Counted from the first letter of the stretch, positions 13,675 to 33,076 are shown. The stretch: 64,000 nt of DNA from Alphaproteobacteria bacterium (GCA_965262615.1 OZ253545.1:800001-864000), one strand, 5' to 3'. Numbers and translations: made by a program. The notes: generated by a model from the letters alone, not told the origin.

Positions 13675-14838
13675 ATGACTGTTATTACCAGACCCGCTAT
13701 TGAAGTAACGCAGGGCAGATACAAATTGTATCTGACATCCTTTACTGCCGAGCATTTTAACATGGCTGATTTTTATGATGTTAAGAAATTAAATATTGAC
13801 GCAGAAGGTGGCTATCAAAGAGGTTTGCAAGAAACGCGCGTCAAAAGGTTTGTTACAGACATTGTCCGAGCCTCTCACGATTCGAGGGCAGCTACCGAAG
13901 ATAATAATTTCGGGTCGTGCTTTTATCCCACATCGGTTTTTTTGACAACAGAACATGATGTGAAATATGACGATGAGAAGAGAGAAATATTATTTGACAC
14001 AAGCATTTGTCCTTTCAACATTGTGGATGGTCAGCATCGTGTGGAGGCTTTGCGGAAAGCCAGTAACGGGAATACCGCTTTGGATGATTTTCCCATGCCC
14101 GTCACACTGGCAACCAACCTCAAGGAAGTGGAACAAATGCTTCAATTTTTGATTGTGAATAGCCAACAAAAGAAGGTTGAAAAAGGAGTGGAGCAACACA
14201 TTTATGCGCGTTTATGCGATATGCAAACACTTAAACCAATGCCTTTTTTGCCAGGAGTGGTGGAAAGAGAAGTAGGAAAGGGCTTATATCGTGAGTGTTT
14301 TGACATTGTCAAATTTCTGAATAATGAAGAAACTTCTCCTTGGAAAGGAAAAATTGTCATGGCTGATGATGACCCTAAAAAGAAAGGTGTTAAACAAGCT
14401 GCGTTTGTGGGTAGTTTGAAAAGGTATATTTTTGCCCAAGGCAACCTTTTGCATGAGAAAAAGGATGATATTCGTTATGTGAAAAATTTTCTTTTGAACT
14501 ACTGGATCGCTTTAACCGAATTCGCATCTCGGGACATTCGTATTGAGTCTGATTCAAATATTTTCAAAACAAATGGACTAAACTTTTTTCATGAAATTTC
14601 TAGCCTTTTTGCAGAAAAGTGCTTGAATAATGATGATGCGACAGTCCCCACAATTAGAGGATATTTTGAGGGGGTGAACGACTGTGCGTTGGAATTGGGA
14701 AATGAAAAGGTGGTAAAATTGATGGCATCTGCAAATTGGGCGAAAGGTGGTGAATTTGGTAAATTGAATCTAGGGGGCATTAGGGGCAAGGCTAGTGAAT
14801 ATAGTGCAATTTTTAAGAGTTGGGATTTAGGATTCTAG
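13675..14838 (+). CDS. DGQHR-domain protein (DndB/ParB-like superfamily)
   Basis: GYQR.L...R, YPTSV, IVDGQHR, QFLIVN..QKKV motifs; AT-rich; AAAGGA SD directly after the mdh stop. Confidence 0.9.
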   Translation: MTVITRPAIEVTQGRYKLYLTSFTAEHFNMADFYDVKKLNIDAEGGYQRGLQETRVKRFVTDIVRASHDSRAATEDNNFGSCFYPTSVFLTTEHDVKYDDEKREILFDTSICPFNIVDGQHRVEALRKASNGNTALDDFPMPVTLATNLKEVEQMLQFLIVNSQQKKVEKGVEQHIYARLCDMQTLKPMPFLPGVVEREVGKGLYRECFDIVKFLNNEETSPWKGKIVMADDDPKKKGVKQAAFVGSLKRYIFAQGNLLHEKKDDIRYVKNFLLNYWIALTEFASRDIRIESDSNIFKTNGLNFFHEISSLFAEKCLNNDDATVPTIRGYFEGVNDCALELGNEKVVKLMASANWAKGGEFGKLNLGGIRGKASEYSAIFKSWDLGF

Positions 14839-22117: not shown

Positions 22118-23344
22118 TTAAAAAGCAAACTGCAGGCGCATTTGCACACCATAGGGCTCATCGGTGCTGTCGCATCCGCACAGCTGTGCGCTGCGCCACG
22201 CTTGCGCCCATTCGGTCATGACGCGAATGTTTTTGACGGGCATCCATATCGCACCGACAGTGACGGCTCGAAATGTGCCTCTGTCAAAGTCGCTGAAAAA
22301 CATCTGATTCCAACGAACACCAACGCCAAACGCACCATAGCCGCCCGATTGAATGTCACGCTTCGGACTCACCCCTTTGGGGATGCCCTTTTTGACATCA
22401 AACTTGTTGTGCTCTCCGGTGAGCCAATAGTTGGCTTGCAGATAAAATCCCATGACGGTGTTGTCATCCCGACTGGAGCTGTTGTTATACCTCACTTGGG
22501 ACAACAGGAATTCGCTCTGCATGGCGAATGATTGATAGCCCACAGCAATCTCGGGGCTAAAATCAATGCGGGCATCGGCATCGGTGGCTTTGACACTGTA
22601 GGTCTTATTGTGAAAGACCGCCTTGGTGAAGGGAGCTCTCGATTCATAAGCCACATCGCCATGACGGTTGTGCACATAATGAACGCTGCCGCCCACATGA
22701 AGATACATGTCATCGTCCATAATGGGCGCAAAGGTGAGCCGAGCCGCCACACCAAAATCGGTGTCATGAGTCTCCTCAAAGGCGGCATTCGCCCCCTTGA
22801 TGGTATCCCCATGCACACCAAAGCCAACCTGACCCATCTTAAACCGATAGTAAATGTTGGCGCCATAGTAACGCGACTCTGGAATCACAACACGCTCCAT
22901 AAAGGGTAGGTTGTTGGAGCTGGAAGGCGGCAACAGTCCAAACGGCGGCTTGTCATGTCCCACCCGCACAATCACATTCTTGATTCCGTTATAATCAAGA
23001 TAGAAACCTTTCATGGAAACACCATTGTCGGAGAAGTCTATGACAGATTTATAGGCAAAGTCCTTGAGGATTTTGCCAGAGAATCCAAAACGGGCTCTGC
23101 GAAACGCTGTTCCAGTATTGCCTTTGACGAATTGGGGATTGCTGTCATCGTCAGCATCAAACAGCGTATCCATATGAAACCGCCCTGAGAGGCGGACCGA
23201 CCAATCTCGGCAGGAGATGGATATTTTGTCCTCATCATAGTCACACTCGGCGAGACTTGCTGCGTGAGCGGGCGCATCAAAAGAGAGCAAAAGGCTTGCG
23301 CCCAATAGTCCTCCCATGATGGTGTTTGGGTTTTTTTTCAACAT
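22118..23344 (-). CDS. Phosphate-selective porin OprO/OprP family
   Basis: FRRARFG, KPPFGL..SSSNNLPFMER, WLTGEH, C-terminal RLQFAF; upstream of pstS. Confidence 0.9.
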   Translation of the reverse strand: MLKKNPNTIMGGLLGASLLLSFDAPAHAASLAECDYDEDKISISCRDWSVRLSGRFHMDTLFDADDDSNPQFVKGNTGTAFRRARFGFSGKILKDFAYKSVIDFSDNGVSMKGFYLDYNGIKNVIVRVGHDKPPFGLLPPSSSNNLPFMERVVIPESRYYGANIYYRFKMGQVGFGVHGDTIKGANAAFEETHDTDFGVAARLTFAPIMDDDMYLHVGGSVHYVHNRHGDVAYESRAPFTKAVFHNKTYSVKATDADARIDFSPEIAVGYQSFAMQSEFLLSQVRYNNSSSRDDNTVMGFYLQANYWLTGEHNKFDVKKGIPKGVSPKRDIQSGGYGAFGVGVRWNQMFFSDFDRGTFRAVTVGAIWMPVKNIRVMTEWAQAWRSAQLCGCDSTDEPYGVQMRLQFAF

Positions 23345-23440: not shown

Positions 23441-25135
23441 CTACCAACCGACTTGCGCTCGGAACTGAATTCCGTATGGAGCTTGCCGATTTCCATCGGC
23501 TTCCACGACCCATGCCCTGACGAATTCGGTAACGAATTTGGTGTAAGCATTGGGAAGCCAAGTCATATTGATGGTGAGTCCTTCATGTCTTCCAAAGTTA
23601 GCGAATCCATCAGACAGGTCAGCATATTGATATCTGAGTCCGAATCCGATAGCCCCTGACCCTCTTCCTGATCCGAGGAATTCATTGCGAGGCTTGATTC
23701 GTCCAAAGGTAGCACTTTGATCATCGTATTGATTAATCTCACCCGTGAGCCAATAGTTCACTTGGGCATACCAAAGGTGCATTGTGGAATCAAGTTTAAT
23801 TCCATCACTTCCGACAATGGTTGGTCTGAGCAGTGTGTATTCTGCTTGGAAAGCGAGGGGTCCCATGACGAGAGCGGCTTCAGGATTGATAGCGTAGAAC
23901 TCCTCATTGAGGTACTCTTGACTGACATGCGTCTGATAGTCCACGGCAAGGAGTGGCTGGCTTAAAGTTGCTGAGAATGGCGCACCGATTCCGAGGATAG
24001 GATTTGTCTTGGACTGGGCATTATTGAAGTTAGCATAACGACCACTGAATCCAAGGTGGAGAAGGGAGCGATTGCTCAGTTCGAAGGAACTGGTGAAACG
24101 ACCTGTGATTCCCACATCGCCTTGAGCATTGGCGGACTCCTTGGTGTCATCGCTTCCTTCCAGCCCTCCGATATGGACAGCACCGGCAACGGTGTTGCCT
24201 CGTTGGGCGACACGCGCCATGACGGCAAAGCGAGTGATATCATAGAATCCTGGGCGTTCCATGAAGTATTCATTTCCATGGGGAGCGGTTTGTTCCAATC
24301 CAAAGGGGAGTTTCATTAAACCAACCTGCATGATGGCACTATCAAACCCTTGATAACGGACATAGGCATCATGGAGTCCGGCTTTGGTTCTGTGGTCGGA
24401 ATATTCTTCCGATGCGGCGAAGATTCCTTTGAGTTCATAGGCCCAGTCCCTGCTGTAAGTTCCTTGCACACCGAGATAGGCACGATTGATATCGGCATAG
24501 GAGCTGGAGATACCTTCTTGAACCGAATTGAGGAAGACGGCATCAACTTGGATAAGTCCGTTGAGGGACAGTGTCCAGTTGCCACAATCCAGCGTGACCA
24601 ATCCTGTTTCCAGAGCGGCACTGCTCACGACCGCACAGCCAGAAACGCTTCCAGAGCCGAAGTCATCGTAGGATTCGGCGAAAGTTCCGTAATCCTCAAA
24701 ACCTTCATCTTCCATGACCTCAGGCTCTTCCTCTTCTGTGAACATATCCAAGAAACCGTAATCTTGAAAATCCTGCATGGGTTCTTCTTCAACAACCTCC
24801 ATGACGGGCTCCTGATCGTAGCTGTCATAGTCATCGAATTCTTCTTCCTCAAACTCTTCATAGTCAATGTCGGAGACATCAACTTCCTCTTCAAGATCGA
24901 CATCATCGTAGCCTTCCTCAAATTGGTATTCATCGAAGACTTCAACGATTTCTTCCTCTTCTTCGTAATAGAGAGGTTCTTCTTCGTAGAAGAAGGTTTC
25001 TTCTTCCTCTTCGAATTCAAATTCTTCGTCAAAGAACCCGCTGTCCGCGCGTGCGGATTGGGGTGAAACCTGGGAAAGCAGCAAGGAGAAGCCGATAATA
25101 ATTCCCAATGGGATTGAATGCCTCAGAACAAACAT
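23441..25135 (-). CDS. OprO/OprP-family porin with a hyper-acidic N-terminal extension
   Basis: Likely start ATG 25135 (GAGGGAG SD), signal peptide ending ARA-D, ~130-aa D/E/F/Y tract, then barrel motifs KLPFGLEQ, FMER, WLTGE, C-terminal RAQVGW. Confidence 0.88.
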   Translation of the reverse strand: MFVLRHSIPLGIIIGFSLLLSQVSPQSARADSGFFDEEFEFEEEEETFFYEEEPLYYEEEEEIVEVFDEYQFEEGYDDVDLEEEVDVSDIDYEEFEEEEFDDYDSYDQEPVMEVVEEEPMQDFQDYGFLDMFTEEEEPEVMEDEGFEDYGTFAESYDDFGSGSVSGCAVVSSAALETGLVTLDCGNWTLSLNGLIQVDAVFLNSVQEGISSSYADINRAYLGVQGTYSRDWAYELKGIFAASEEYSDHRTKAGLHDAYVRYQGFDSAIMQVGLMKLPFGLEQTAPHGNEYFMERPGFYDITRFAVMARVAQRGNTVAGAVHIGGLEGSDDTKESANAQGDVGITGRFTSSFELSNRSLLHLGFSGRYANFNNAQSKTNPILGIGAPFSATLSQPLLAVDYQTHVSQEYLNEEFYAINPEAALVMGPLAFQAEYTLLRPTIVGSDGIKLDSTMHLWYAQVNYWLTGEINQYDDQSATFGRIKPRNEFLGSGRGSGAIGFGLRYQYADLSDGFANFGRHEGLTINMTWLPNAYTKFVTEFVRAWVVEADGNRQAPYGIQFRAQVGW

Positions 25136-25395
25136 GAATATACTCCCTCTATCGTTCGTGAAAGAACACTTATATTGCGTTATGGTGTGACTTCGCCGCC
25201 TGACCGATGTCTCGCCCATTGATTGCGATGAAGCCATCAAGGACAGTTTATCGCACATAATCATAATGATTGCAAGAGTGATAAAGTGGAAAATTAATAA
25301 ATAATTCATGAAGACAGGTGGTGGTTAGTTGCCTCTTTGGCGGATGTGTGTCAGCATTGGTGGCTCAATTGGGAGAGAAATTTTGGGAGTTGGGC

Positions 25396-25800: not shown

Positions 25801-26502
25801 ATGATGGTCAAAAAAGACGAACCCAAGACAGCACAAAAGAAAACGCCAGCCAAAAAGAAGGCTGCCGCGCCGAATGTTGCTGTGCCGAATGTTGCTGTGC
25901 CCAAGACAAAAGCTGTGGCACGCAAGAAAACTGTCTCACCATCGGTCGCCGCAAAGAAGGTTAGTAAATCGGAAGTAAAGCCAGAAATAAAAATTGTCAA
26001 TGGACGCATGGTTCGTAAGGCGCGCCTGCCTCGTCAGGATAGTTACACATTGCGCGCGAGTGAGGTGAATCGTCAGTGGTGGATTGTGGATGCTCGCGGG
26101 TTGGTGCTGGGGCGCATGGCGGCGGTGATTTCGTCTGTGTTGCGCGGTAAGACCAAGCCCACCTATACGCCTCATATGGATGGCGGCGATGGCGTGATTG
26201 TGGTCAATGCGCGCGCTGTGGCATTGACGGGCAATAAGCGCGCCGGTAAGATTTATTATCGTCACACGGGCTATCCGGGTGGACTCAAGGAGCAACAGGC
26301 GGGAGCGATTTTGGATGGCAAGCATCCCGAGCGCGTGGTCACCCTTGCGGTCAAGCGCATGTTGGGACGAGGTCCCATGGCGCGCCAACGGCTGTCTCAT
26401 TTGAAGGTGTATGGAGGCGAGACCCATCCTCATGAGGGATTGCAGCCCAAGTCGCTGGATGTGGCGGCGATGAACAAGAAGAATGTGAGGCATGGATCAT
26501 GA
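25801..26502 (+). CDS. rplM: 50S ribosomal protein L13 with N-terminal Lys/Ala/Pro-rich extension
   Basis: [34 protein letters not shown]. Start at 25801 (GAGG SD) or internal Met near 26008. Confidence 0.95.
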
Positions 26503-26966
26503 CCGAGACGGTGCAAGAGAAAAAAAGCGAGTCGGCTGAGGCAACACCCAAAGCCGCGCCGCCAATCAAGGACATGCCGCCCAGTGGTTTTTATGCCACC
26601 GGACGCCGCAAGGACGCGGTGGCGCGCGTGTGGCTACGCAAGGGCAAGGGAACGGTGACGGTCAATCATCGCTCTTTTGAGACTTATTTTGCCCGTCCTG
26701 TGTTGCGGATGGTGATTGCTCAGCCGCTGGAGCTGGTGGGGGTGACATCACACTATGATGTTTTTTGCACGGTGAAGGGCGGCGGTTTGTCGGGACAGGC
26801 GGGGGCGGTGCGTCATGGCATTGCTCGCGCCCTGGCGATGAGTGACGATGCCGCTCATTCTCAATTGCGCCGCAACGGATTTCTCACGCGCGATGCTCGC
26901 GTGGTGGAGCGCAAAAAATACGGCAGACACAAAGCGCGCCGTTCCCATCAATTCTCCAAACGCTAA
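26499..26966 (+). CDS. rpsI: 30S ribosomal protein S9
   Basis: [32 protein letters not shown]. Confidence 0.98.
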
Positions 26967-26981
26967 TGGTGAATCACGCCT

Positions 26982-27308
26982 TCAGGGCGCGCTGTCGGAA
27001 AACAGACGAATCACCGCAACCCCCAAAACAATTAATGCGATGCCGATGAGTGCGGCATTGTCCAGCACTTCGTCAAACAGCAGCCATCCCATGACGCTGA
27101 TGAGAATGATGCCGATGGCACTCCACAGGGCATAGGCGATGCCGATGGGAATGGATTGTAGCGACAGGGTGAGAAAATAAAATGACACCCCATAACCCAC
27201 CATCACGATGGTGCTGGGAAGCCACTCAGTGAATTGATTGGTGTATTTGAGTGCCGATGTGGCAATCACTTCGGCAACGATGGCGACAAACAAATACATG
27301 TAATGCAT
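26982..27308 (-). CDS. SMR-family small multidrug efflux transporter (EmrE/QacE-like)
   Basis: Four TM helices, AIVAEVIATSALK with the conserved Glu, IAYALWS.IG. Confidence 0.92.
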   Translation of the reverse strand: MHYMYLFVAIVAEVIATSALKYTNQFTEWLPSTIVMVGYGVSFYFLTLSLQSIPIGIAYALWSAIGIILISVMGWLLFDEVLDNAALIGIALIVLGVAVIRLFSDSAP

Positions 27309-27347
27309 GATGCCGTATCGTAATTGGAGCGATGAAAAATCACAAGA

Positions 27348-27448
27348 AGACTTATGATTTTATGGTGATTTTGTTTTGTTGCCAAAAATAAAAATCATAA
27401 GCAGACTTATGATTTTGATTTTGTTTTATTGCCAAAAACAAAAATCAT
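27348..27448. repeat. Imperfect ~50-bp duplication of the DUF6804-like gene 3' end
   Basis: agacttatgatttt...tgattttgtttt(g/a)ttgccaaaaa(t/c)aaaaatcat at 27348-27398 and 27403-27448. Confidence 0.85.
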
Positions 27449-27817
27449 CATAGTGGCACACAGGGTGATGGTGGCGGCATTGATGCCATCCCACACCTCT
27501 CGTGCAAATCCAAGAGGCACGAAGGGATTGTAAATGACGGCAAAAATCACCAGCACAGCCATGAGCCATTTTGTGGGGGCGGCGCGCGACTGTGTCATCA
27601 TGGATGACAGTCCATGCACAAGAATGACCATGTAGCCACAAATCATCCAACGGGTGAAAATATAGTAGCCATAGGGCAGACCCAACACATCCCCCAGCAT
27701 GGCGACCGAAAGAATGAAAATTGGCAACAGATGATTTGACCAGTGATTAAAAAAGAACACTTTTTTGGTGAGATGGTCACGAACGGCAATACGCCAAGAG
27801 TGTGAAGAAGGTGTCAT
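27407..27817 (-). CDS. DUF6804-like small membrane protein
   Basis: LPYGYY.F.RW, IFAVIYNPF.P..F.RE.W..I motif; GGGAG SD before ATG 27817. Confidence 0.7.
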   Translation of the reverse strand: MTPSSHSWRIAVRDHLTKKVFFFNHWSNHLLPIFILSVAMLGDVLGLPYGYYIFTRWMICGYMVILVHGLSSMMTQSRAAPTKWLMAVLVIFAVIYNPFVPLGFAREVWDGINAATITLCATMMIFVFGNKTKSKS

Positions 27818-27833
27818 AGCAGCAGCTCCCTGA

Positions 27834-28144
27834 TGCAGTATTGAACAAAACACCCACACTAAGTGTTGGGCGTGCCACACACTAGACATCCTAGATAGCC
27901 CGTCTATTCCCCACAGAACCCATCAGCAAAACTGATGATATGGGTGTTGTATTCAACAGGACACCCAACCAAAGGTTGGATGCCTATGTGTGTGGCAGCG
28001 TGATGGTAGGTTAAAAGGCGATAAAAATCAAGTTTTTTGATTGGGTGTTGTTCTTCACTAGGAGCACCCAGCCCTGTCTATTTCCCTTGCGGCACACGAA
28101 GCACCATTGGGTATTGTATTCAACAGGACACCCAACCCAATTCA
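27834..28144. repeat. Hairpin-rich non-coding element with repeated TGGGTGTTGTATTCAACAGGACACCCA motif
   Basis: Motif copies near 27941-27970, 28041-28073 and 28107-28137, degenerate copy near 27834-27859; long inverted repeat 27873-27891/27978-27997. Confidence 0.75.
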
Positions 28145-28576
28145 TCAAAAGACTGAATATGCGCGTTTTTGTTCAACGGCTTGGCGGTAATAGTTTATAA
28201 TTTCTTTGCTGGTGGAATCGCTTTTGAACAGTCCCTCGCATATCTTGATGAGAATGTCATTGCTCAAATAAGAGTCTTGTCCTTGACTTTGCATGGCAAG
28301 AGGCAGGTTTTGTAAGGCTTCGTGGCTTGTGGAAATGCACCTTGCCCACTTATAGATGATGTAACTGTCACGAATGATGCTGTAATGGTCACCTTTTTTG
28401 AGAAGACATGTTCTATCTATATGATGGCGTTTTCCGCCGTAGCTATTTTTGACACTGGATGCATTGGCGTAAATGATATAGTGACCTTCCTTTTTATTTT
28501 GGGGCGTAAAAGGGTCGGTGAGAGTAAAAGCAGGGTGGTCTTTTATGATGAAGTATCTGCCTCTGTCAAGGCTCAT
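28145..28576 (-). CDS. Putative toxin, copy 2 (uncharacterised; possibly PemK/MazF-like fold)
   Basis: HPAF.LTDP, NASSV, D.TCLLKKGDHYSI..DS.I.Y; 4-nt overlap with the upstream Panacea gene. Confidence 0.65.
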   Translation of the reverse strand: MSLDRGRYFIIKDHPAFTLTDPFTPQNKKEGHYIIYANASSVKNSYGGKRHHIDRTCLLKKGDHYSIIRDSYIIYKWARCISTSHEALQNLPLAMQSQGQDSYLSNDILIKICEGLFKSDSTSKEIINYYRQAVEQKRAYSVF

Positions 28577-29166
28577 GCGACCTCACCGTGTTGGTGTATG
28601 TAATCGTCAAGAGCTTGAAAGGAGCGAATTTCGTCACTGCAATCTTTTGCCTCTTCGTCATCGTATCCGTAGGCTTTGAAGACATCTTCGTATGCAATAC
28701 GAATGGAGCTGCCGTGTGGGTCTTGCCACTCAGGGATTTTTTCAGAGTCGTGAGTGTAGTGGGAGAGTTGGTCGGCGGTCATAGAGCCAAACCGATTCCA
28801 TATGTCTTGCATGACACGGTGATTGAGTCTTGACAATCTCCCAACGGCATCTTCGTCTATGGGTTGGTTTTTTTTGAGTTTGATGTCGTATTGATTTGTG
28901 TGGTCAATCCACTCCAGCCAATCTTTTTGTGTTGCCTTTGTTTTGCCCGCCAGCAGATTATAGGTGTGTGACAAAACAGGACCCCGCGGCAAAGAATACA
29001 AATCATCATCACAGATGGTCACGCCATGACTGCCAATGCATTCTCGCTCGGACAAATACAACAGCTTGATGAGTTTCATGACGCTCATCTTGTCGCTCGT
29101 CTGGCGATTTTTATCAAGGAAGAACAAAATCATGTGGGTGGCGGTTCGTTCGCAATACATGTGCAT
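28573..29166 (-). CDS. Panacea-domain (DUF4065/SocA-like) antitoxin, copy 2
   Basis: MKLIKLLYL, GPV, FGSMTA.QL..YTH, PEW motifs. Confidence 0.88.
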   Translation of the reverse strand: MHMYCERTATHMILFFLDKNRQTSDKMSVMKLIKLLYLSERECIGSHGVTICDDDLYSLPRGPVLSHTYNLLAGKTKATQKDWLEWIDHTNQYDIKLKKNQPIDEDAVGRLSRLNHRVMQDIWNRFGSMTADQLSHYTHDSEKIPEWQDPHGSSIRIAYEDVFKAYGYDDEEAKDCSDEIRSFQALDDYIHQHGEVA

Positions 29167-29190
29167 TTTCTCCTGCTCGTGTTATCTACG

Positions 29191-29219
29191 AATATAATAT
29201 CAAAATTTGTCCTTTGCAA
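29191..29219 (-). promoter_or_regulatory. Sigma70-like promoter of TA cassette 2
   Basis: TTGCAA-N17-TATATT; both hexamers identical in the 30321-30349 copy while the spacer has diverged. Confidence 0.65.
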
Positions 29220-29230
29220 CAACGGTGGGC
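29213..29230. repeat. 18-bp direct repeat that includes the tRNA-Val 3' end (att-like)
   Basis: tttgcaacaacggtgggc identical at 29213-29230 and 30343-30360; period 1130 bp. Confidence 0.85.
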
Positions 29231-29267
29231 AAAGATGGTGCTGTGAAGCGATTTGAAAATCAAGGTT

Positions 29268-29711
29268 TTAAATTTTATATGCACAGCCCTGTTCAACAGC
29301 TTGGCGGTAGAAGTCTTTGACATCAGACCTTGCGAGAGTGCTTTGCATCAAGCCTTTGCATATTTTCATGAGGATGGCGGGAGTGAGGAAGGCATCTTGT
29401 CCTTGACTCTGCATGGCAAGGGGAAGGTTCTGTAAGGCTTCGTGGTTCGTGGAAATGCACTCTGCCCGTTTATAGGCGATGAAACTGTCATGGGTGATGC
29501 TGTAATGGTCACCTTTTTTGAGAAGACATGTTTTATCTACAATTCTCTTCTCGCCTCGCCAATCTCTCACACTAGAAGCATTGACACAAATGACCTTTTT
29601 TTGCGTTTGTCCCTTGGGTTTGCCCTTTGGTATGAATGGATCGGTGAGAATAAAAGCAGGGTGTTCCTTAAAAATAAAATATCTGCCCCTGCTGATGTCA
29701 TCAAGGCTCAT
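29268..29711 (-). CDS. Putative toxin, copy 1
   Basis: Paralogue of 28145-28576 (CIST.HEALQNLPLAMQSQGQD shared); ATGA overlap with the antitoxin. Confidence 0.65.
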   Translation of the reverse strand: MSLDDISRGRYFIFKEHPAFILTDPFIPKGKPKGQTQKKVICVNASSVRDWRGEKRIVDKTCLLKKGDHYSITHDSFIAYKRAECISTNHEALQNLPLAMQSQGQDAFLTPAILMKICKGLMQSTLARSDVKDFYRQAVEQGCAYKI

Positions 29712-30295
29712 GCGAGAGCCTCGCCTTGTCGCATTTTTTCTGTAAAAGATTGCTGAAAGCGAATTTCTTCACTGTACATTTTTGCCTCTTTTTCATTGCA
29801 TCCATAGGCTTTGAAAATATCTTCATACTCAATGGGGATAGAACTGCCGTGAGGGTCTTGCCATTCGGGAATTTTTTTGGAGTTGTGGGTGTAGTCAGAG
29901 AGTTGTTGGGCGGTCATAGAGCCAAACCGATTCCATACATCTTCCATAATGTCGTGATCAACTTGAGCCAATCTTCCCAAATTTTTTCTCATGACGGGTT
30001 TATTGTCTTTGATTTTGATATCAAATGTATTGGCAGCATCAATCCATTCCAGCCAATCTTTTTGTGTTGGGTTTGTTTTGCCCGCCAGCAAATCATAGGT
30101 GTGTGACAAAACAGGACCGAGCGGCAAAGAATACATCGTGTCATCACAGATGGTCTCTCCATGCTTGCCAATGCATTCTCGCTCGGACAAATACAACAGC
30201 TTGATGAGTTTCATGACGCTCATCTTGTCGCCCTTCGCACGATTTTGATCAAGGAAGAACAAAATCATGTGGGTGGCGGTTCGTTCGCAATACAT
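29708..30295 (-). CDS. Panacea-domain (DUF4065/SocA-like) antitoxin, copy 1
   Basis: Same motifs as copy 2; AGGAG SD upstream of ATG 30295. Confidence 0.88.
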   Translation of the reverse strand: MYCERTATHMILFFLDQNRAKGDKMSVMKLIKLLYLSERECIGKHGETICDDTMYSLPLGPVLSHTYDLLAGKTNPTQKDWLEWIDAANTFDIKIKDNKPVMRKNLGRLAQVDHDIMEDVWNRFGSMTAQQLSDYTHNSKKIPEWQDPHGSSIPIEYEDIFKAYGCNEKEAKMYSEEIRFQQSFTEKMRQGEALA

Positions 30296-30320
30296 TATTA
30301 TGTCTCCTGTGTTATCTACG

Positions 30321-30349
30321 AATATAATATCAGCGAGTGTGTTTTGCAA
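30321..30349 (-). promoter_or_regulatory. Sigma70-like promoter of TA cassette 1
   Basis: TTGCAA-N17-TATATT immediately downstream of tRNA-Val. Confidence 0.65.
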
Positions 30350-30355
30350 CAACGG

Positions 30356-30427
30356 TGGGCGCGGCTGGGATTGAACCAGCGACCCCTACGATGTCAACGT
30401 AGTGCTCTCCCGCTGAGCTACGCGCCC
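30356..30427 (-). tRNA. tRNA-Val (anticodon GAC); CCA not fully encoded (ACCG)
   Basis: GGGCGCG-TAGCTCAGCGGGAGAGCA-CTACG-TTGACAT-CGTAG-GGGTC-GCTGG-TTCAATC-CCAGC-CGCGCCC-A folds as a cloverleaf. Confidence 0.97.
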
Positions 30428-31217: not shown

Positions 31218-32746
31218 GGATGTCTAAAATGAATGTCCTGATGCGCCTGCGGATGGCGCGTGTGGTGTGGATTTTGGCATCATCGGGGGCGCATCGCGTG
31301 GCGCATCAGTTGGGCGCGCCTGCCAGTTTGGTGCGGGTGATGGCGATTCTTTCGTTCACCAAGGATGACCGCCATCAGGGCGAGGCTTTGGGGCGCGCTC
31401 TGGAGCGGATGGGCGCGGGATTCATCAAACTGGGACAGCTGCTTGCCACCCGCAGTGATATTGTGGGCGAGGCGGTGGCGCGCTCGCTTTCTTTTTTGCA
31501 CGATGACCTCAAGCCGCTCAGTCCTGCGCGCGCCAAAAAACAATTGGAAGAGGTTTTGGGCGGTGAGCTCACAGAGCATTTTCGGACCTGTGATGTGCAC
31601 GCGGTCAAGGCGGCATCCATTGCCCAAATTCACAAAGCCACCACCCATGATGGCAAGACGGTTGCCATCAAGCTGCTGCGTCCCAATGTGATGCGGCAGT
31701 TCATGAAGGATTTTAAGCTTTTGCGCGTTCTTGTGAGTTGGATCGAAAAACATCGCCCCGATTTGCGGCAGTTGCGATTGCATCAGGTGCTGGATCATTT
31801 GGAGGTGACCGTTCGCAATGAGCTGGATTTGCGTCTGGAGGCATCGGCGATGGCGATTATTGGGGAGCGGCTCAGGCAAAGCCGTCATCATCGCGTGCCG
31901 CGAGTGTATTGGCAGTGGAATCACGAGAAACTGCTGGTGATGGAATGGATTGATGCCACACGCATGGATGAGGTGACATTGAGCAAAAAGGAGCGCACCG
32001 CCATTGTGACCCACCTCACACGGGCGGTGTTTGGTCAGATTTTCCGAGACGGATTTTTCCATGCGGACATTCATCCGGGCAACATTTTGTTGGATTCACA
32101 AAAGCGCATGGTGTGGCTGGATTTTGGCATCACCGGCGCGCTGGATGAGGAAGAGCGTTTGTTGCTCGCCATGATGATGGATGCTTTTTTTCAGCATGAC
32201 TATGAGCGGGTGGCTCGCTTGCACAAACAGGCGGGGTATGTGTCCATGATGGAATCCACAAAATCGTTTGCCATTGCCATGGAGCGCATTGCCGTTCCGG
32301 TGTTGCACAAGCCTTTGAAGGAGGTGTCCATGGCGCACTGGATTGCCCAAATTCTCAACATCACCGAGAACTTTGCCATGGAGGCACAGCCCCAATTGCT
32401 CATGCTGCAAAAGACACTGTTCCTGCTGGAGAGCCTCGCCCGTATGCTCAATGACGACATGGATTTATGGACGCTAGGGCATGGAGAGGTGACGCAATGG
32501 CTCAAACACCAATCGCCGCGCCAAAGGGTAGAAAGGAATTTGCGGGAGTTGTTGCCAGTGGTGGGACAATTGCCGCGCCAATGGCAGCGTGTGAATCATT
32601 GGTGGCAAGAGATGGAGAAAGACGGGTTACGGCTGCACCATGAGACTGTGAAAGAACTACGCCCAAAGTCGTCACGCGTTGTGCCTTTTGTGTGGTGGCT
32701 GTTGGGGCTTGTGTGTGGCGGTGGTGCTGTGTGGTTATGGGGGTGA
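31211..32746 (+). CDS. ubiB: Ubiquinone biosynthesis kinase-like protein UbiB
   Basis: IKLGQLLATR, AASIAQIH, FFHADIHPGN, DFG, QPQLLMLQKT. Confidence 0.93.
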   Translation: MVGMSKMNVLMRLRMARVVWILASSGAHRVAHQLGAPASLVRVMAILSFTKDDRHQGEALGRALERMGAGFIKLGQLLATRSDIVGEAVARSLSFLHDDLKPLSPARAKKQLEEVLGGELTEHFRTCDVHAVKAASIAQIHKATTHDGKTVAIKLLRPNVMRQFMKDFKLLRVLVSWIEKHRPDLRQLRLHQVLDHLEVTVRNELDLRLEASAMAIIGERLRQSRHHRVPRVYWQWNHEKLLVMEWIDATRMDEVTLSKKERTAIVTHLTRAVFGQIFRDGFFHADIHPGNILLDSQKRMVWLDFGITGALDEEERLLLAMMMDAFFQHDYERVARLHKQAGYVSMMESTKSFAIAMERIAVPVLHKPLKEVSMAHWIAQILNITENFAMEAQPQLLMLQKTLFLLESLARMLNDDMDLWTLGHGEVTQWLKHQSPRQRVERNLRELLPVVGQLPRQWQRVNHWWQEMEKDGLRLHHETVKELRPKSSRVVPFVWWLLGLVCGGGAVWLWG

Positions 32747-33076
32747 TGGAGGCATCAGCTTTTTCACAAACTTTTTCAAATCATCATCGTCAATGACTGA
32801 TGTATCGCCTTTTTTTACCTTTTCCCATTTTTCTTTATCTTTAGATAATTTAATCAGCTTGCACCCTAATGGGGTCAATTGTCTCACCATTATTGAGCTA
32901 GGTGGTTCGTAATCGGACTCAAAATTATCCTTTTCCAAAAGCCCAAAATCAATGAGTTCTCGGAGAATTTTCTTTCTAGTCTCATCAGATTCCAACAAAT
33001 GCACACGACCTTTCGTAAGTTCAAGTTCGTCTTTGTAAAATATTAAATCTTCTACAACGCGTTCAAGTTTTGACAT
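32735..33076 (-). CDS. Hypothetical AT-rich protein, DUF2513-like winged helix
   Basis: L.ELIDFGLL...RQLTPLG..LI....KWEKVKK pattern. Confidence 0.55.
   Translation of the reverse strand: MSKLERVVEDLIFYKDELELTKGRVHLLESDETRKKILRELIDFGLLEKDNFESDYEPPSSIMVRQLTPLGCKLIKLSKDKEKWEKVKKGDTSVIDDDDLKKFVKKLMPPSPP

Follow-up and report, generated by a model that had tools for sequence, protein, structure and literature searches.

Two tandem candidate PanAT toxin-antitoxin pairs with mosaic variable patches next to tRNA-Val(GAC) in an alphaproteobacterial sequence

Tandem two-gene units next to tRNA-Val(GAC)

We analyzed a 64,000-nt stretch of DNA from Alphaproteobacteria bacterium (GCA_965262615.1 OZ253545.1:800001-864000), hereafter called the window. 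Directly 3' of tRNA-Val(GAC), the single tRNA gene detected by ARAGORN in the 64-kb window, two units of ∼1.13 kb lie on the minus strand with the same order of parts (Table 1). The initial annotation had described two tandem units of ∼1.1 kb, each with an 18-bp repeat of the tRNA end, a TTGCAA-N17-TATATT promoter, a Panacea gene (panA) and an ATGA-coupled partner ORF of ∼145 aa (panT), with all four ORFs intact. Most of this description was confirmed: the four frames are open, the quoted peptides are present, the promoter-like site is found at both places (9/12 to the consensus), panA and panT overlap by 4 nt (ATGA) in both units, and the partners are 147 and 143 aa long.

The repeat (GCCCACCGTTGTTGCAAA) is indeed exact and present once per unit, but only 7 of its 18 bases (GCCCACC) lie inside the tRNA according to ARAGORN, or 5 according to Rfam; the remaining 11 nt of copy 1 are downstream of the tRNA and include the -35 hexamer. 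Exactly two copies were found in 64 kb (chance expectation 0.16; at least two matches in 2/100 shuffles). A third copy is absent from the 64 kb at up to 3 mismatches, and 24-nt and 14-nt probes of the tRNA end detected no additional copy in the region. The 18-mer is the beginning of a unit-long homology, which continues for 52 nt at 87% identity and then through the genes. The tRNA 3' end (…GCCCA-CC) abuts the array; since the base following CC in the genome is G, the CCA of tRNA-Val is incompletely encoded. A 24-nt block spanning the -10 and the start region is shared by the units without a mismatch; the promoter consensus scan as a whole gave no enrichment (6 sites found vs 4.8 expected). 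The 37-nt spacer at the junction of the units is not significantly similar to the sequence past the distal unit (75/1000 shuffles scored equally well). The array has a G+C content of 0.438 vs 0.525 for the window and is its lowest 2.2-kb stretch. A scan of the 57 larger ORFs of the window detected no integrase, transposase or recombinase domain, in line with the earlier description of the array as integrase-free.

Table 1. Features of the tandem array and its tRNA-Val neighbor, with positions counted from the first nucleotide of the window.
Feature	Position	Strand	Distal counterpart	Evidence
tRNA-Val (anticodon GAC)	30354..30427	-		ARAGORN; Rfam RF00005 30356..30427, 67.5 bits
18-bp exact repeat, copy 1	30343..30360	-		Exact-match search of 64 kb
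Promoter-like site, proximal unit, TTGCAA-17-TATATT	30321..30349	-		Consensus scan 9/12; starts 5 nt past tRNA end
Proximal panA, 195 aa	29708..30295	-		Pfam PF13274, E 2.9e-19; AlphaFold model
PanA central variable patch, proximal, residues 86-116	29948..30040	-	28813-28905	
PanA variable C-terminal tail, proximal, residues 164-195, long helix	29711..29806	-	28576-28671	
Proximal panT, 147 aa, MazF/PemK-fold toxin candidate, ATGA-coupled	29268..29711	-		Model pLDDT 86.3; Foldseek; hhalign; phrog_19071 E 3e-10
PanT N-terminal variable module, proximal, residues 27-56	29544..29633	-	28424-28507	
PanT C-terminal variable module, proximal, residues 105-134	29310..29399	-	28190-28279	
Unique 37-nt spacer, proximal panT stop to second 18-bp repeat	29231..29267	-		Sequence
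18-bp exact repeat, copy 2, head of distal unit	29213..29230	-		Exact-match search of 64 kb
Promoter-like site, distal unit, TTGCAA-17-TATATT	29191..29219	-		Consensus scan 9/12
Distal panA, 197 aa, Panacea domain, alternative allele type in central patch and C-terminal helix	28573..29166	-		Pfam PF13274, E 5e-18; alignments
Distal panT, 143 aa, of the proximal panT family; N- and C-terminal modules of the other allele type	28145..28576	-		phrog_19071 E 1.9e-8; alignments

The upstream genes of the two units matched Pfam PF13274 (SocA_Panacea) with scores of 66.5 and 70.5 bits (gathering cut-off 25.7). Proximal panA begins with an ATG codon preceded by AGGAG at 8 nt; a TTG start at 30352 proposed by the ORF lister was set aside as not common to the other copy. 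The proximal PanA (AlphaFold model pLDDT 92.9, pTM 0.90) combines a Panacea domain (residues 30-140) with the conserved PEWQDPHGSS(I)PI stretch and, at the C-terminus, a long helix (residues 168-194). PEWQDPHGSS is the most conserved stretch of PanA across 60 relatives and is near-identical between the two copies. PanA antitoxins were reported to carry a conserved GPV motif in strand 2 adjoining the central helix (Kurata et al., 2022, PMC8832971). The motif is found in both copies as PRGPVLSH and PLGPVLSH, with G60 and P61 invariant in 60 relatives, and in the model strand 60-63 follows helix 27-45, which is the expected position.

Fold and family of the PanT proteins

Sequence searches with PanT were largely negative. 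There was no credible Pfam match for the four window proteins and 36 distant relatives searched, no NCBIfam match to PanT, and chance-level PDB matches by sequence (E at least 0.5); the Pfam PemK model (PF02452), applied with an E limit of 10, did not match either PanT or any of the 49 members of the family. An AlphaFold model built from the 49-sequence alignment (pLDDT 86.3, pTM 0.83) was more informative: among the Foldseek matches listed from PDB, all were MazF/PemK-type chains, with 4mzp_A as the best (E 4.7e-3, probability 1.00, TM 0.51 by target length). These fold matches are modest, with no E-value better than that of 4mzp_A and TM of 0.42-0.59 (0.46-0.59 by target length). A search of a viral structure library placed PemK-like proteins and endoribonucleases on top, and in the ESM Atlas the nearest Pfam-assigned cluster was PemK, which we take as a lead. 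We concluded from the model that PanT is predicted to have the SH3-like barrel fold of the MazF/Kid/CcdB type. Within the family H17 (46/46), D59 (47/49), H69 (49/49), S76 (47/49) and Y80 (48/49) are near-invariant, and all five are kept in both copies.

One distant relative (P0013) matches plasmid pAOF1 of Acetobacter orientalis FAN1, where a Panacea gene lies 14 nt upstream of the partner. For FAN1, Dataset S1 of the PanAT survey lists exactly one PanAT pair, in cluster T6, with the order A|T and a gap of 14 (Kurata et al., 2022, PMC8832971). T6 also includes a pair of Pseudomonas moraviensis with the labels "TA" and "EndoA/PemK/MazF-family RNAses"; experiments validated its PanT as a toxin that the cognate PanA rescues and that acts as a specific inhibitor of protein synthesis (Kurata et al., 2022, PMC8832971). 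By hhalign, the 49-sequence PanT profile matched three plasmid partners at 99.5-99.8% probability (E 2e-22 to 8e-28), among them the FAN1 partner at 99.7% (E 7e-27). The window PanA and FAN1 PanA share 34% identity over 190 aa (E 3e-34), and in BLASTP the PanTs share 33% over 72 aa (E 9e-9). The link to T6 has one bridge, the FAN1 pair, matched to its published row by strain, single occurrence and 14-nt gap rather than by accession. Fold and profile homology show that the predicted window PanTs belong to the family of PanT cluster T6. The partner had initially been considered a possible uncharacterised toxin family, a view now superseded by the MazF/PemK matches of the model and the hhalign link to T6; membership in a described PanT family, one half of what the initial annotation had named as contrary to its reading, is what the FAN1 pair indicates.

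A Panacea gene is found directly upstream of the PanT relatives in 9/9 loci, i.e., 3/3 plasmid loci and 6/6 of the phage loci inspected (from 9 phage records matched). The gap between the Panacea gene and its partner ranges from -4 to +14 in eight loci, and the plasmid and phage loci come from different genera; in phage Sirocco, whose record has no annotation for the partner, 44 nt separate the Panacea gene from the tblastn match. In phages YeP1 and SKA5 the pair adjoins an integrase, and a tRNA was found near 0/3 of the plasmid-borne relatives. Some relatives appear to carry two to three copies on single contigs: a longest contig of 62,561 nt is common to three PanT clusters and one of 57,431 nt to two PanA clusters. 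Both window units, with their -4 overlap and an order kept in relatives, agree with the definition of a PanAT two-gene locus (Kurata et al., 2022).

Mosaic divergence and matching of variable modules

The two units are identical at 827 of 1108 aligned bases (74.6%), and the encoded proteins share 69% (PanA) and 64% (PanT) amino-acid identity. The alternation of near-identical blocks and strongly diverged patches pointed out at the outset proved to be beyond chance. The three longest tracts of identity measure 66, 48, and 38 nt, and the longest tract in permuted alignments had a mean of 20.4 and a maximum of 47, with 66 nt reached in 0/5000 permutations. Synonymous divergence ranges from 0.12 to saturation: in panA, dS is 0.12 for codons 1-82, 2.9 for codons 83-122, 1.15 for codons 123-162 and 0.30 for codons 163-197; in panT, the blocks give in order 1.4, saturated, 0.32, and saturated.

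Four variable patches were delimited. The PanA central patch, modeled as a loop, a short strand and a short helix inside the Panacea domain, is 41% identical between the copies vs a background of 69% (dS 2.9, dN 0.41) and occurs as two types among 11 relatives. In the PanA tail (dS 0.30, dN 0.43), the last 16 residues are 19% identical. The PanT N-terminal module is 38% identical and the C-terminal module 37%, each with two types (among 13 sequences for the former) and saturated synonymous sites. The toxin patches had been described as loops; in the model this fits the N-terminal module, which covers strand 3 together with the loops on either side of it, the first of them following strand 2, but not the C-terminal one, which covers helix 111-123 and the beginning of helix 129-140. 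Three of the four patches have a pN/pS of 0.4-0.5 and so give no hint of positive selection; the PanA tail has a pN/pS of 1.34 with a bootstrap interval of 0.68-3.2, which is not significantly above 1.

Every variable segment is bimodal among 13 PanT and 11 PanA sequences, and all four combinations of PanT N-type and C-type are present among the 13. In a PHI-type test of the protein alignments, permutations at or below the observed value numbered 0/2000 for PanT and 1/2000 for PanA; the test used amino acids, in which selection can add homoplasy. From these results and the saturated dS we concluded that each variable patch is an old class of two allele types which has been reshuffled between relatives, and not a loop that diversified in recent times.

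In 6/6 pairs, the last 16 residues of PanA and the C-module of PanT are of matching type; four of these pairs were put together solely by equal size of the longest contig. With three pairs of each type, the one-sided exact probability of the association is 0.05, and a single pair (P0066/P0007) sets the tail (6/6) apart from the central patch and the first part of the tail (5/6 each). PanAs showed strict cognate specificity in a 10 × 10 matrix (Kurata et al., 2022, PMC8832971), and C-terminal helices added to the Panacea core can be the neutralising element (Ernits et al., 2023). The initial annotation had proposed insulated specificity or different phage triggers as the role of the variable patches, of which insulated specificity is plausible. 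Because the PanA tail type tracks the PanT C-helix type, we tentatively take the C-terminal helix of PanA and the C-terminal helices of PanT as matching specificity surfaces that might insulate the two pairs from each other.

Interpretation and comparison with known systems

The reading that we consider reasonably probable is that the locus consists of two tandem, independently promoted type II PanAT operons with putative MazF-like toxins, diversified by homologous recombination. Each unit would give rise to one bicistronic message from its sigma-70-like promoter, and panA and panT are, to judge from the ATGA overlap, translationally coupled. By analogy with the P. moraviensis T6 toxin, PanT would most likely arrest growth via a translation block, probably as an endoribonuclease; PanA, like the antitoxins of validated PanAT pairs, would most likely neutralise it through direct binding, and PanT would act upon loss or switch-off of PanA, e.g., after locus loss or phage infection. 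The units would be old paralogues, in which most of panT and the middle of panA are saturated at synonymous sites; recent gene conversion would have homogenised the promoter, the first 80 panA codons and the middle of panT, and homologous recombination would shuffle the two old types of each of the four patches among array copies of related strains. Since patch types would be shuffled and blocks converted by homologous recombination, the array could grow, shrink and diversify by unequal crossing-over, conversion and allele exchange without a dedicated integrase.

We regard it as doubtful, though worth weighing, that the units are redundant duplicates whose pairs cross-neutralise freely, the patches being tolerated variation of a non-critical surface carried along by recombination. 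The pN/pS values of three of the four patches would fit such a reading, and the PEWQDPHGSS stretch, near-identical in both PanAs, could be the real binding element. However, the patches fall into two well-separated types across 11-13 sequences with no continuum, the tail type tracks the toxin C-module type in 6/6 pairs, and neither window pair has a broken frame or lacks any residue conserved in the family. The natural PanAs tested to date are also strictly cognate-specific (PMC8832971).

An unlikely origin for the array is a prophage or island that had integrated at tRNA-Val and whose addictive toxin-antitoxin modules outlived the rest, to be duplicated in place later. Its remnant would be the low-G+C segment from rpsI to tRNA-Val, which carries an SMR transporter, a DUF6804 gene, two elements resembling sRNA-Xcc1 and both PanAT units. 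It agrees with the low G+C content (0.44-0.47) from about 26.8 to 30.4 kb and with the occurrence of T6-type pairs as phage and plasmid cargo, adjoining an integrase in two phages. The sRNA-Xcc1 family has been reported on integron cassettes, transposons and plasmids. Past the distal unit there are two weak matches to this cassette-borne RNA, but at 30.6 and 25.8 bits vs a Rfam gathering score of 53 they are below threshold. Moreover, a search for an integrase remnant, phage gene or flanking tRNA-end repeat found none. As a statement about origin alone, the relic reading does not conflict with the favoured account of present function.

That small mobile cassettes were captured successively at the tRNA-Val 3' end, by a recombinase encoded elsewhere and with the 18-bp repeat as the crossover core, we judge quite improbable. 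Anchoring at the tRNA 3' end and accretion had been suggested in the initial annotation. The exact direct repeat, which starts within the tRNA end and stands at the head of both units, the low G+C content of the array, and the relatives on plasmids and temperate phages, next to an integrase in YeP1 and SKA5, would be in favor of a site-specific process. Such a process was not supported: only 7 nt of the tRNA are repeated, and two insertions should leave three cores, of which two were found at up to 3 mismatches and none at the distal edge. The 18-mer starts a unit-long homology, so homologous recombination accounts for the repeat equally well. No integrase was found in the 57 ORFs scanned, none of the three plasmid relatives lies near a tRNA, and nothing past the distal unit matches the tail of the proximal unit significantly.

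There is also a small probability that PanT is not an RNase toxin, and either poisons another target in the manner of CcdB or is non-toxic, with the MazF fold but a different role beside PanA. The MazF/CcdB fold also houses gyrase poisons, and the catalytic residues of MazF are an Arg/Thr pair, unlike the His/Asp/His/Ser set, or the Tyr, conserved in the PanT family. The failure of the Pfam PemK model on all 49 members points in the same direction, as do the HHpred lists for the neighboring MazF-like cluster T5, which also include CcdB in Dataset S1 (PMC8832971). Against it stand the validated T6 member, toxic, PanA-rescued and specific for protein synthesis in the same source (PMC8832971), and the best structural matches of the PanT model, all of which are MazF/PemK RNases and not CcdB. 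Least probable by far is an assembly artefact joining two strains' alleles head to tail: the source is apparently an uncultured lineage known from metagenome assemblies and tracts of identity between the units reach 66 nt, but the junction has a unique 37-nt spacer and shared sequence of only 18 nt (usual assembly k-mers are longer), units of 74.6% identity are far from collapsible, and relatives appear to have two to three copies on single contigs.

Read as two tandem PanAT operons, the locus joins a PanA to a MazF-like toxin, which is a known kind of module and not a new type of system. The nearest described pairs are those of T6 (type: P. moraviensis BS3668), which likewise have a PanA without an N-terminal domain, antitoxin-first order and a small gap or overlap, with toxins annotated as "hypothetical protein" that have no CDD/Pfam match and a MazF/PemK-like fold. 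The window differs in carrying two diverged pairs in tandem, on the chromosome and beside a tRNA; among 45 of the 57 T6 cells in the survey data, one assembly has two T6 pairs, with non-adjacent accession numbers (PMC8832971). Its putative antitoxins and toxins are also distant from the FAN1 bridge pair (33-34% identity). With MazEF and PemIK (Kid-Kis), the window shares the toxin fold, the antitoxin-first operon and the expected action on translation; its antitoxin, however, is Panacea and not MazE/AbrB-like, and its toxin fails the Pfam PemK model and has two extra C-terminal helices. SocAB of Caulobacter, a type VI toxin-antitoxin system, is the founding Panacea-domain system, and its antitoxin carries PF13274 as in the window. 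The window PanAs scored 14.4 and 19.1 bits with the SocA equivalog NF047745 (cut-off 190), and their partner is MazF-like, not SocB, so that a proteolytic-adaptor mechanism is not implied.

The mosaic itself has parallels elsewhere. In the target-recognition domains of type I restriction HsdS proteins and in CDI/Rhs arrays of orphan immunity genes and toxin tips, conserved frames flank recombining variable modules; these are analogies only, unrelated to the window pairs in sequence and function. In ParD-ParE, Aakre et al. (2015) and Lite et al. (2020) reportedly found that a few specificity-determining positions insulate paralogous toxin-antitoxin pairs, an idea which the two-type patches of the window pairs parallel. 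That work dealt with dispersed paralogues and point substitutions, whereas in the window whole segments of old type would be exchanged by recombination between tandem copies.

Anatomy of the tandem panA-panT units

Two homologous units, each consisting of a Panacea-domain antitoxin gene (panA) and a downstream partner ORF encoding a MazF/PemK-fold toxin candidate (panT), lie directly downstream of tRNA-Val(GAC) on the same strand; the unit nearer the tRNA gene is referred to as proximal and the other as distal. Both panA copies match Pfam PF13274 (SocA_Panacea) far over the cut-off, all four frames are open, and the panA stop overlaps the panT start (ATGA) in each unit. A TTG at 30352, given as the proximal panA start by an ORF listing, was set aside after the unit alignment pointed to the ATG at 30295, which is common to both copies and preceded by AGGAG in each. 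A TTGCAA-17-TATATT site occupies the equivalent position in both units, and 24 nt over its -10 element are identical between them. Because a scan of the window for promoter-like sites was overall not enriched over shuffles, the weight of these two sites rests on their conservation. The cassettes are thus as the initial annotation described them: two intact units, each with a repeat, a promoter-like site, a Panacea gene and an ATGA-coupled ORF. An assembly artefact as the source of the tandem is unlikely, since the unit junction contains a unique spacer of 37 nt and merely 18 bases are common to both unit heads as an exact repeat. A profile search of 1435 six-frame ORFs detected no further copies or remnants in the window.

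Coordinates of the tandem array and of other features in the window
Feature	Position	Strand	Remarks
tRNA-Val(GAC)	30354-30427	minus	only tRNA gene in the window; Rfam 67.5 bits
Proximal panA	29708-30295	minus	195 aa
Proximal panT	29268-29711	minus	147 aa
Distal panA	28573-29166	minus	197 aa
Distal panT	28145-28576	minus	143 aa
sRNA-Xcc1-like elements (two, related, structured)	28031-28137 and 27858-27969	minus	~110 nt; immediately follow the distal panT stop and precede the DUF6804 gene
DUF6804 membrane-protein gene	27407-27889	minus
AT-rich repeats	27335-27448		between the SMR and DUF6804 genes
SMR-family transporter gene	26982-27308	minus
Low-G+C stretch	about 26800-30400		G+C 0.44-0.47 vs 0.525; between rpsI and tRNA-Val; takes in the SMR and DUF6804 genes, the sRNA-Xcc1-like elements and the TA array
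ORF with DndB-like domain	13675-14838	plus	387 aa; PF14072 (DNA-sulfur-modification associated), E 1e-9
Porin_O_P (phosphate-selective porin) paralogues	22118-23344 and 23441-25309	minus	neighbouring genes
rplM ORF as listed	25801-26502	plus	begins 90 codons ahead of the L13 domain
Low-G+C ORF	32735-33076	minus	113 aa; G+C 0.363; just after ubiB, on the opposite strand

Within the 64 kb the 18-mer GCCCACCGTTGTTGCAAA has exactly two copies, one heading each unit. It had been described as a tRNA-end repeat; the exact repeat is real, but just 7 of its 18 bases (GCCCACC) are in the tRNA, namely the last four acceptor-stem bases, the discriminator base and CC, and the remaining 11 are sequence downstream of the tRNA, the -35 hexamer among them. 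Homology continues past the 18-mer for 52 nt at 87%, then through the genes, and stops at the stop codons. The 18-mer is the beginning of a unit-long homology and no free-standing repeat. Allowing up to three mismatches gave no extra copy in the window, including beyond the distal unit, and longer tRNA 3'-end probes found no other copy at the distal edge or in that region. Homology between the tail of the proximal unit and the flank beyond the distal unit was also considered and rejected (best local alignment 12 nt, equaled in 75 of 1000 shuffles). Across the window 57 larger ORFs, housekeeping genes (e.g., valS, ileS, dnaE, rplM, rpsI, ubiE, ubiB, sucCD and rib genes), were scanned; none has an integrase, transposase or recombinase domain, and to that extent the array is integrase-free as initially proposed. 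The accompanying proposal of accretion anchored at the tRNA 3' end was not supported, there being no third repeat copy and the 18-mer merely opening the unit-long homology; continuing site-specific capture at the tRNA end is weakly supported. A tRNA-adjacent pattern of repeat plus cargo can come from plain tandem homology, without site-specific integration.

Fold and family of the partner ORF

PanT could not be named by sequence: Pfam, NCBIfam and PADLOC gave no match, and comparison of the single protein and of a 49-sequence profile with PDB sequences gave chance-level matches alone (E 0.5 or more). Eleven close relatives (62-88% identity) came out of a word-indexed search of 5.8 billion proteins, every one of them from an ENA assembly; exhaustive HMMER comparison with 1.84 billion representatives gave 49 proteins at E ≤ 1e-3, of 84-175 aa bar one of 1337 aa. 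No credible Pfam family was found in any of 36 distant relatives scanned, and the Pfam PemK model matched none of the 49 family members. Residues H17, D59, H69, S76, Y80 and G120 are near-invariant in the 49-sequence alignment and are kept by both PanTs of the window. The structural search proposed at the outset for the partner ORF led to the MazF/PemK fold: with an AlphaFold model built from this alignment (pLDDT 86.3, pTM 0.83), the Foldseek matches listed against PDB were solely MazF/PemK-type endoribonucleases (best 4mzp_A, E 4.7e-3, probability 1.00), and PemK-like proteins and endoribonucleases topped the list from a viral structure library. As modeled, the kinship of PanT to MazF/PemK is at the level of fold and not of sequence-level membership.

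We also searched plasmids and phages for the family by tblastn. The window's own PanT gave no match; with distant relatives as queries, family members turned up in nine phage records and on three plasmids, pAOF1 of Acetobacter orientalis FAN1 and one each from Endozoicomonas and Acinetobacter baumannii. Immediately upstream of the partner, each of the three plasmid loci and of the six inspected phage loci has a Panacea-domain gene (Pfam E 5e-18 to 6e-27). The gap between the two genes is -4 to +14 nt in eight of these nine loci; in the ninth, from phage Sirocco, the partner has no annotation and the match begins 44 nt downstream of the Panacea gene. By hhalign the family profile matched the three plasmid partners at 99.5-99.8% probability. 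In Dataset S1 of Kurata et al. (2022; PMC8832971), FAN1 has exactly one PanAT pair, with the antitoxin first and a gap of 14 nt, assigned to toxin cluster T6, and the pAOF1 locus has the same geometry. Cluster T6 also holds a validated pair ("TA") from Pseudomonas moraviensis, whose toxin is EndoA/PemK/MazF-like by HHpred (PMC8832971, Dataset S1); this toxin specifically inhibited protein synthesis and is without a CDD hit (PMC8832971). Window and FAN1 PanA are 34% identical over the full length (E 3e-34), and the PanTs 33% identical over 72 residues (E 9e-9). Because of the profile match and these identities to the FAN1 T6 pair, we place the partner ORFs, by homology, in a described and experimentally anchored PanT family, and the "uncharacterised toxin family" of the initial annotation is accordingly withdrawn. 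For the antitoxin, a sequence profile found no structurally solved PanA relatives, and the fold search with the PanA model gave a best E of 0.18.

Mosaic units, allele types and antitoxin-toxin matching

The two units are 74.6% identical in DNA, very unevenly along their length. Between the panA copies, dS is 0.12 over codons 1-82, 2.9 over 83-122, 1.15 over 123-162 and 0.30 over 163-197; between the panT copies it is 1.4 over codons 1-22, saturated over 23-55, 0.32 over 56-100 and saturated again over 101-130. Identical tracts reach 66, 48 and 38 nt, against a maximum longest tract of 47 nt in 5000 permutations of the differences. Because panA codons 123-162, which include the PEWQDPHGSS stretch, combine this high dS (windows up to pS 0.89) with a dN of 0.09, the units are taken to be old paralogues under strong constraint; some tracts, namely the promoter, the 5' portion of panA and the central part of panT, have undergone recent homogenisation. 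The alternation of near-identical and diverged blocks noticed initially is thus confirmed by the uneven dS and the 66-nt tract, but, with synonymous sites saturated and pN/pS at 0.4-0.5, the patches are no rapidly evolving loops. The PanA C-terminal tail is the sole patch with pN/pS above 1 (1.34, not significant; bootstrap 0.68-3.2).

Alleles were typed in alignments of 13 PanT and 11 PanA sequences, in which every variable segment falls into two well-separated types. For PanT, all four combinations of N-module (residues 27-56) and C-module (105-134) types are present, and one relative has a C-module 100% identical to that of the window's proximal copy together with a distal-type N-module. 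Three of the four combinations of PanA central patch and last 16 residues are present, and the two halves of the PanA tail recombine with each other too. In a PHI-type incompatibility test on the protein alignments, 0/2000 (PanT) and 1/2000 (PanA) permutations were at or below the observed value. One longest contig, of 62,561 nt, is common to three PanT clusters, and another, of 57,431 nt, to two PanA clusters, which suggests relatives with arrays of three and two units.

In a confident AlphaFold model of PanA (pLDDT 92.9, pTM 0.90), the central patch (86-116) lies inside the Panacea domain as a loop, a short strand and a short helix; right behind the Pfam domain comes a loop formed by the conserved PEWQDPHGSS stretch (about 143-155), and the variable tail is a single long helix (168-194). 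In the PanT model the N-module takes in strand 3 and the loops on both sides of it, the first of which follows strand 2, and the C-module is both C-terminal helices; these two helices are not known from typical MazF. We compared types in six PanA-PanT pairs, two from the window and four inferred from the relatives' equal-sized contigs: the PanA tail-end type equals the PanT C-module type in all six, the central patch and the first tail half each agree with the C-module in five, and the PanT N-module is in step with the PanA type in just four. The association is thin: with 3+3 pairs the one-sided exact probability is 0.05, and one recombinant pair alone sets the tail apart from the central patch. 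The tail/C-module matching accords with the findings of Ernits et al. (2023) on PanAs in which neutralisation resides in the C-terminal helices and the Panacea core is proposed to sense a trigger. Kurata et al. (2022; PMC8832971) report strict cognate specificity in a 10 × 10 matrix.

We propose that each unit would be a self-contained type II TA operon in which PanT, with its MazF fold and T6 kinship, is a toxin that most likely blocks translation, probably as an RNase, and PanA would neutralise PanT by binding it directly. Matching C-terminal surfaces probably insulate the two pairs from each other, and the array most likely diversifies by homologous recombination through unequal crossing-over, gene conversion and allele exchange with other strains; a role in phage defence is conceivable. 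What the data establish directly are the layout, the fold, the kinship with T6, the conserved antitoxin-toxin gene pairing and the recombinant mosaic; toxicity, RNase activity, direct binding, insulation and a part in phage defence are inferred. A further reading, which we consider improbable, is that the array is a natural combinatorial library with the pairing, target and trigger jobs each in its own exchangeable module. A lock-and-key code between the C-terminal helix of PanA and those of PanT would then insulate the pairs, the PanT N-module, freely recombining relative to the antitoxin, might set the cut target, and the two-type patch in the Panacea core might be the trigger-sensing surface postulated by Ernits et al. 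(2023). If so, tandem and inter-strain recombination would deal new trigger-target-lock combinations without dedicated machinery.

Origin, neighbourhood and relation to known systems

The array is the lowest-G+C 2.2-kb stretch in the window (0.438 vs 0.525), and the low-G+C stretch around it may be one acquired islet. PanAT relatives are carried by plasmids and temperate phages, with an integrase adjoining in some. In locus extracts of Yersinia phage YeP1 (926-2998) and Escherichia phage SKA5 (1-1911), the integrase gene is the immediate neighbour of a Panacea/T6-like pair, which occupies the prophage end that carries the attachment site; after phage integration the pair would adjoin a tRNA gene. 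Horizontal acquisition of the array, perhaps within an element once integrated at tRNA-Val, is plausible. Its best matches are 91% (PanA) and 88% (PanT) identical, vs 99% for ValRS of the same genome. This ValRS matches one ENA cluster (16 members) at 99%, the next at 62% and then Alphaproteobacteria MAGs at ~53%, and the source, apparently an uncultured alphaproteobacterium, seems to have few sequenced relatives. A close-family pattern scan of 185,579 species-representative genomes, from which the window's lineage is evidently absent, gave no true match; a Sphingobacterium match of 15 residues, antisense inside another gene (210-aa ORF), was dismissed as chance.

The two structured elements after distal panT are full-length, sub-threshold matches to RF02221 sRNA-Xcc1 (30.6 and 25.8 bits; gathering score 53) with stable folds (z -2.8 and -2.6). 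They have in common the motifs AAUACAA(U/C)ACCC and GGG(G/A)AAUAGAC and a 21-mer found nowhere else in the window. In published examples sRNA-Xcc1 lies upstream of the symE toxin gene, on integron cassettes, or of an ORF6N protein, in APSE phages. The AT-rich repeats comprise two tandem copies ~50-55 nt apart (27 nt at 93%, 33 nt at 94%) and hairpins with 17-26-nt arms. Elsewhere in the window, between mdh and sucC, a further pocket of low G+C (about 0.44) contains the DndB-like ORF, which may be a small defence-type insertion within the housekeeping gene row. The 113-aa ORF may likewise be a small acquired gene; it is weakly similar to DUF2513 (E 1.4e-4, below cut-off) and to phrog_585 (E 2.9e-4). 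The second Porin_O_P paralogue has an additional N-terminal region of ~250 aa. The Lys/Ala/Pro-rich stretch ahead of L13 is either a real basic N-terminal extension or a product of the listing, which would then have taken an in-frame ATG upstream of a true start at about residue 70-90.

We found no description of tandem PanAT arrays in the literature searched: "tandem," "paralog" and "duplicat" are absent from the main text of PMC8832971 and "tandem" from that of PMC10440598, and none of 45 of the 57 T6 entries in Dataset S1 (PMC8832971) represents two adjacent T6 pairs in one assembly. The locus amounts to a natural experiment, with two intact pairs adjoining and four segments in two old versions each, recombined among relatives. 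Its value to the Panacea field lies in ready-made natural chimeras, which address two open questions: where in a stand-alone PanA the neutralisation of a MazF-fold toxin resides, and whether a distinct and perhaps sensory surface exists on the Panacea core. Tandem or paralogous TA pairs and their insulation are familiar in other TA families. As a system, the locus adds one more instance to a TA class already described, in which PanA is paired with a MazF-fold T6 toxin, and its PanT has in common with the validated P. moraviensis T6 PanT a MazF/PemK-like character.
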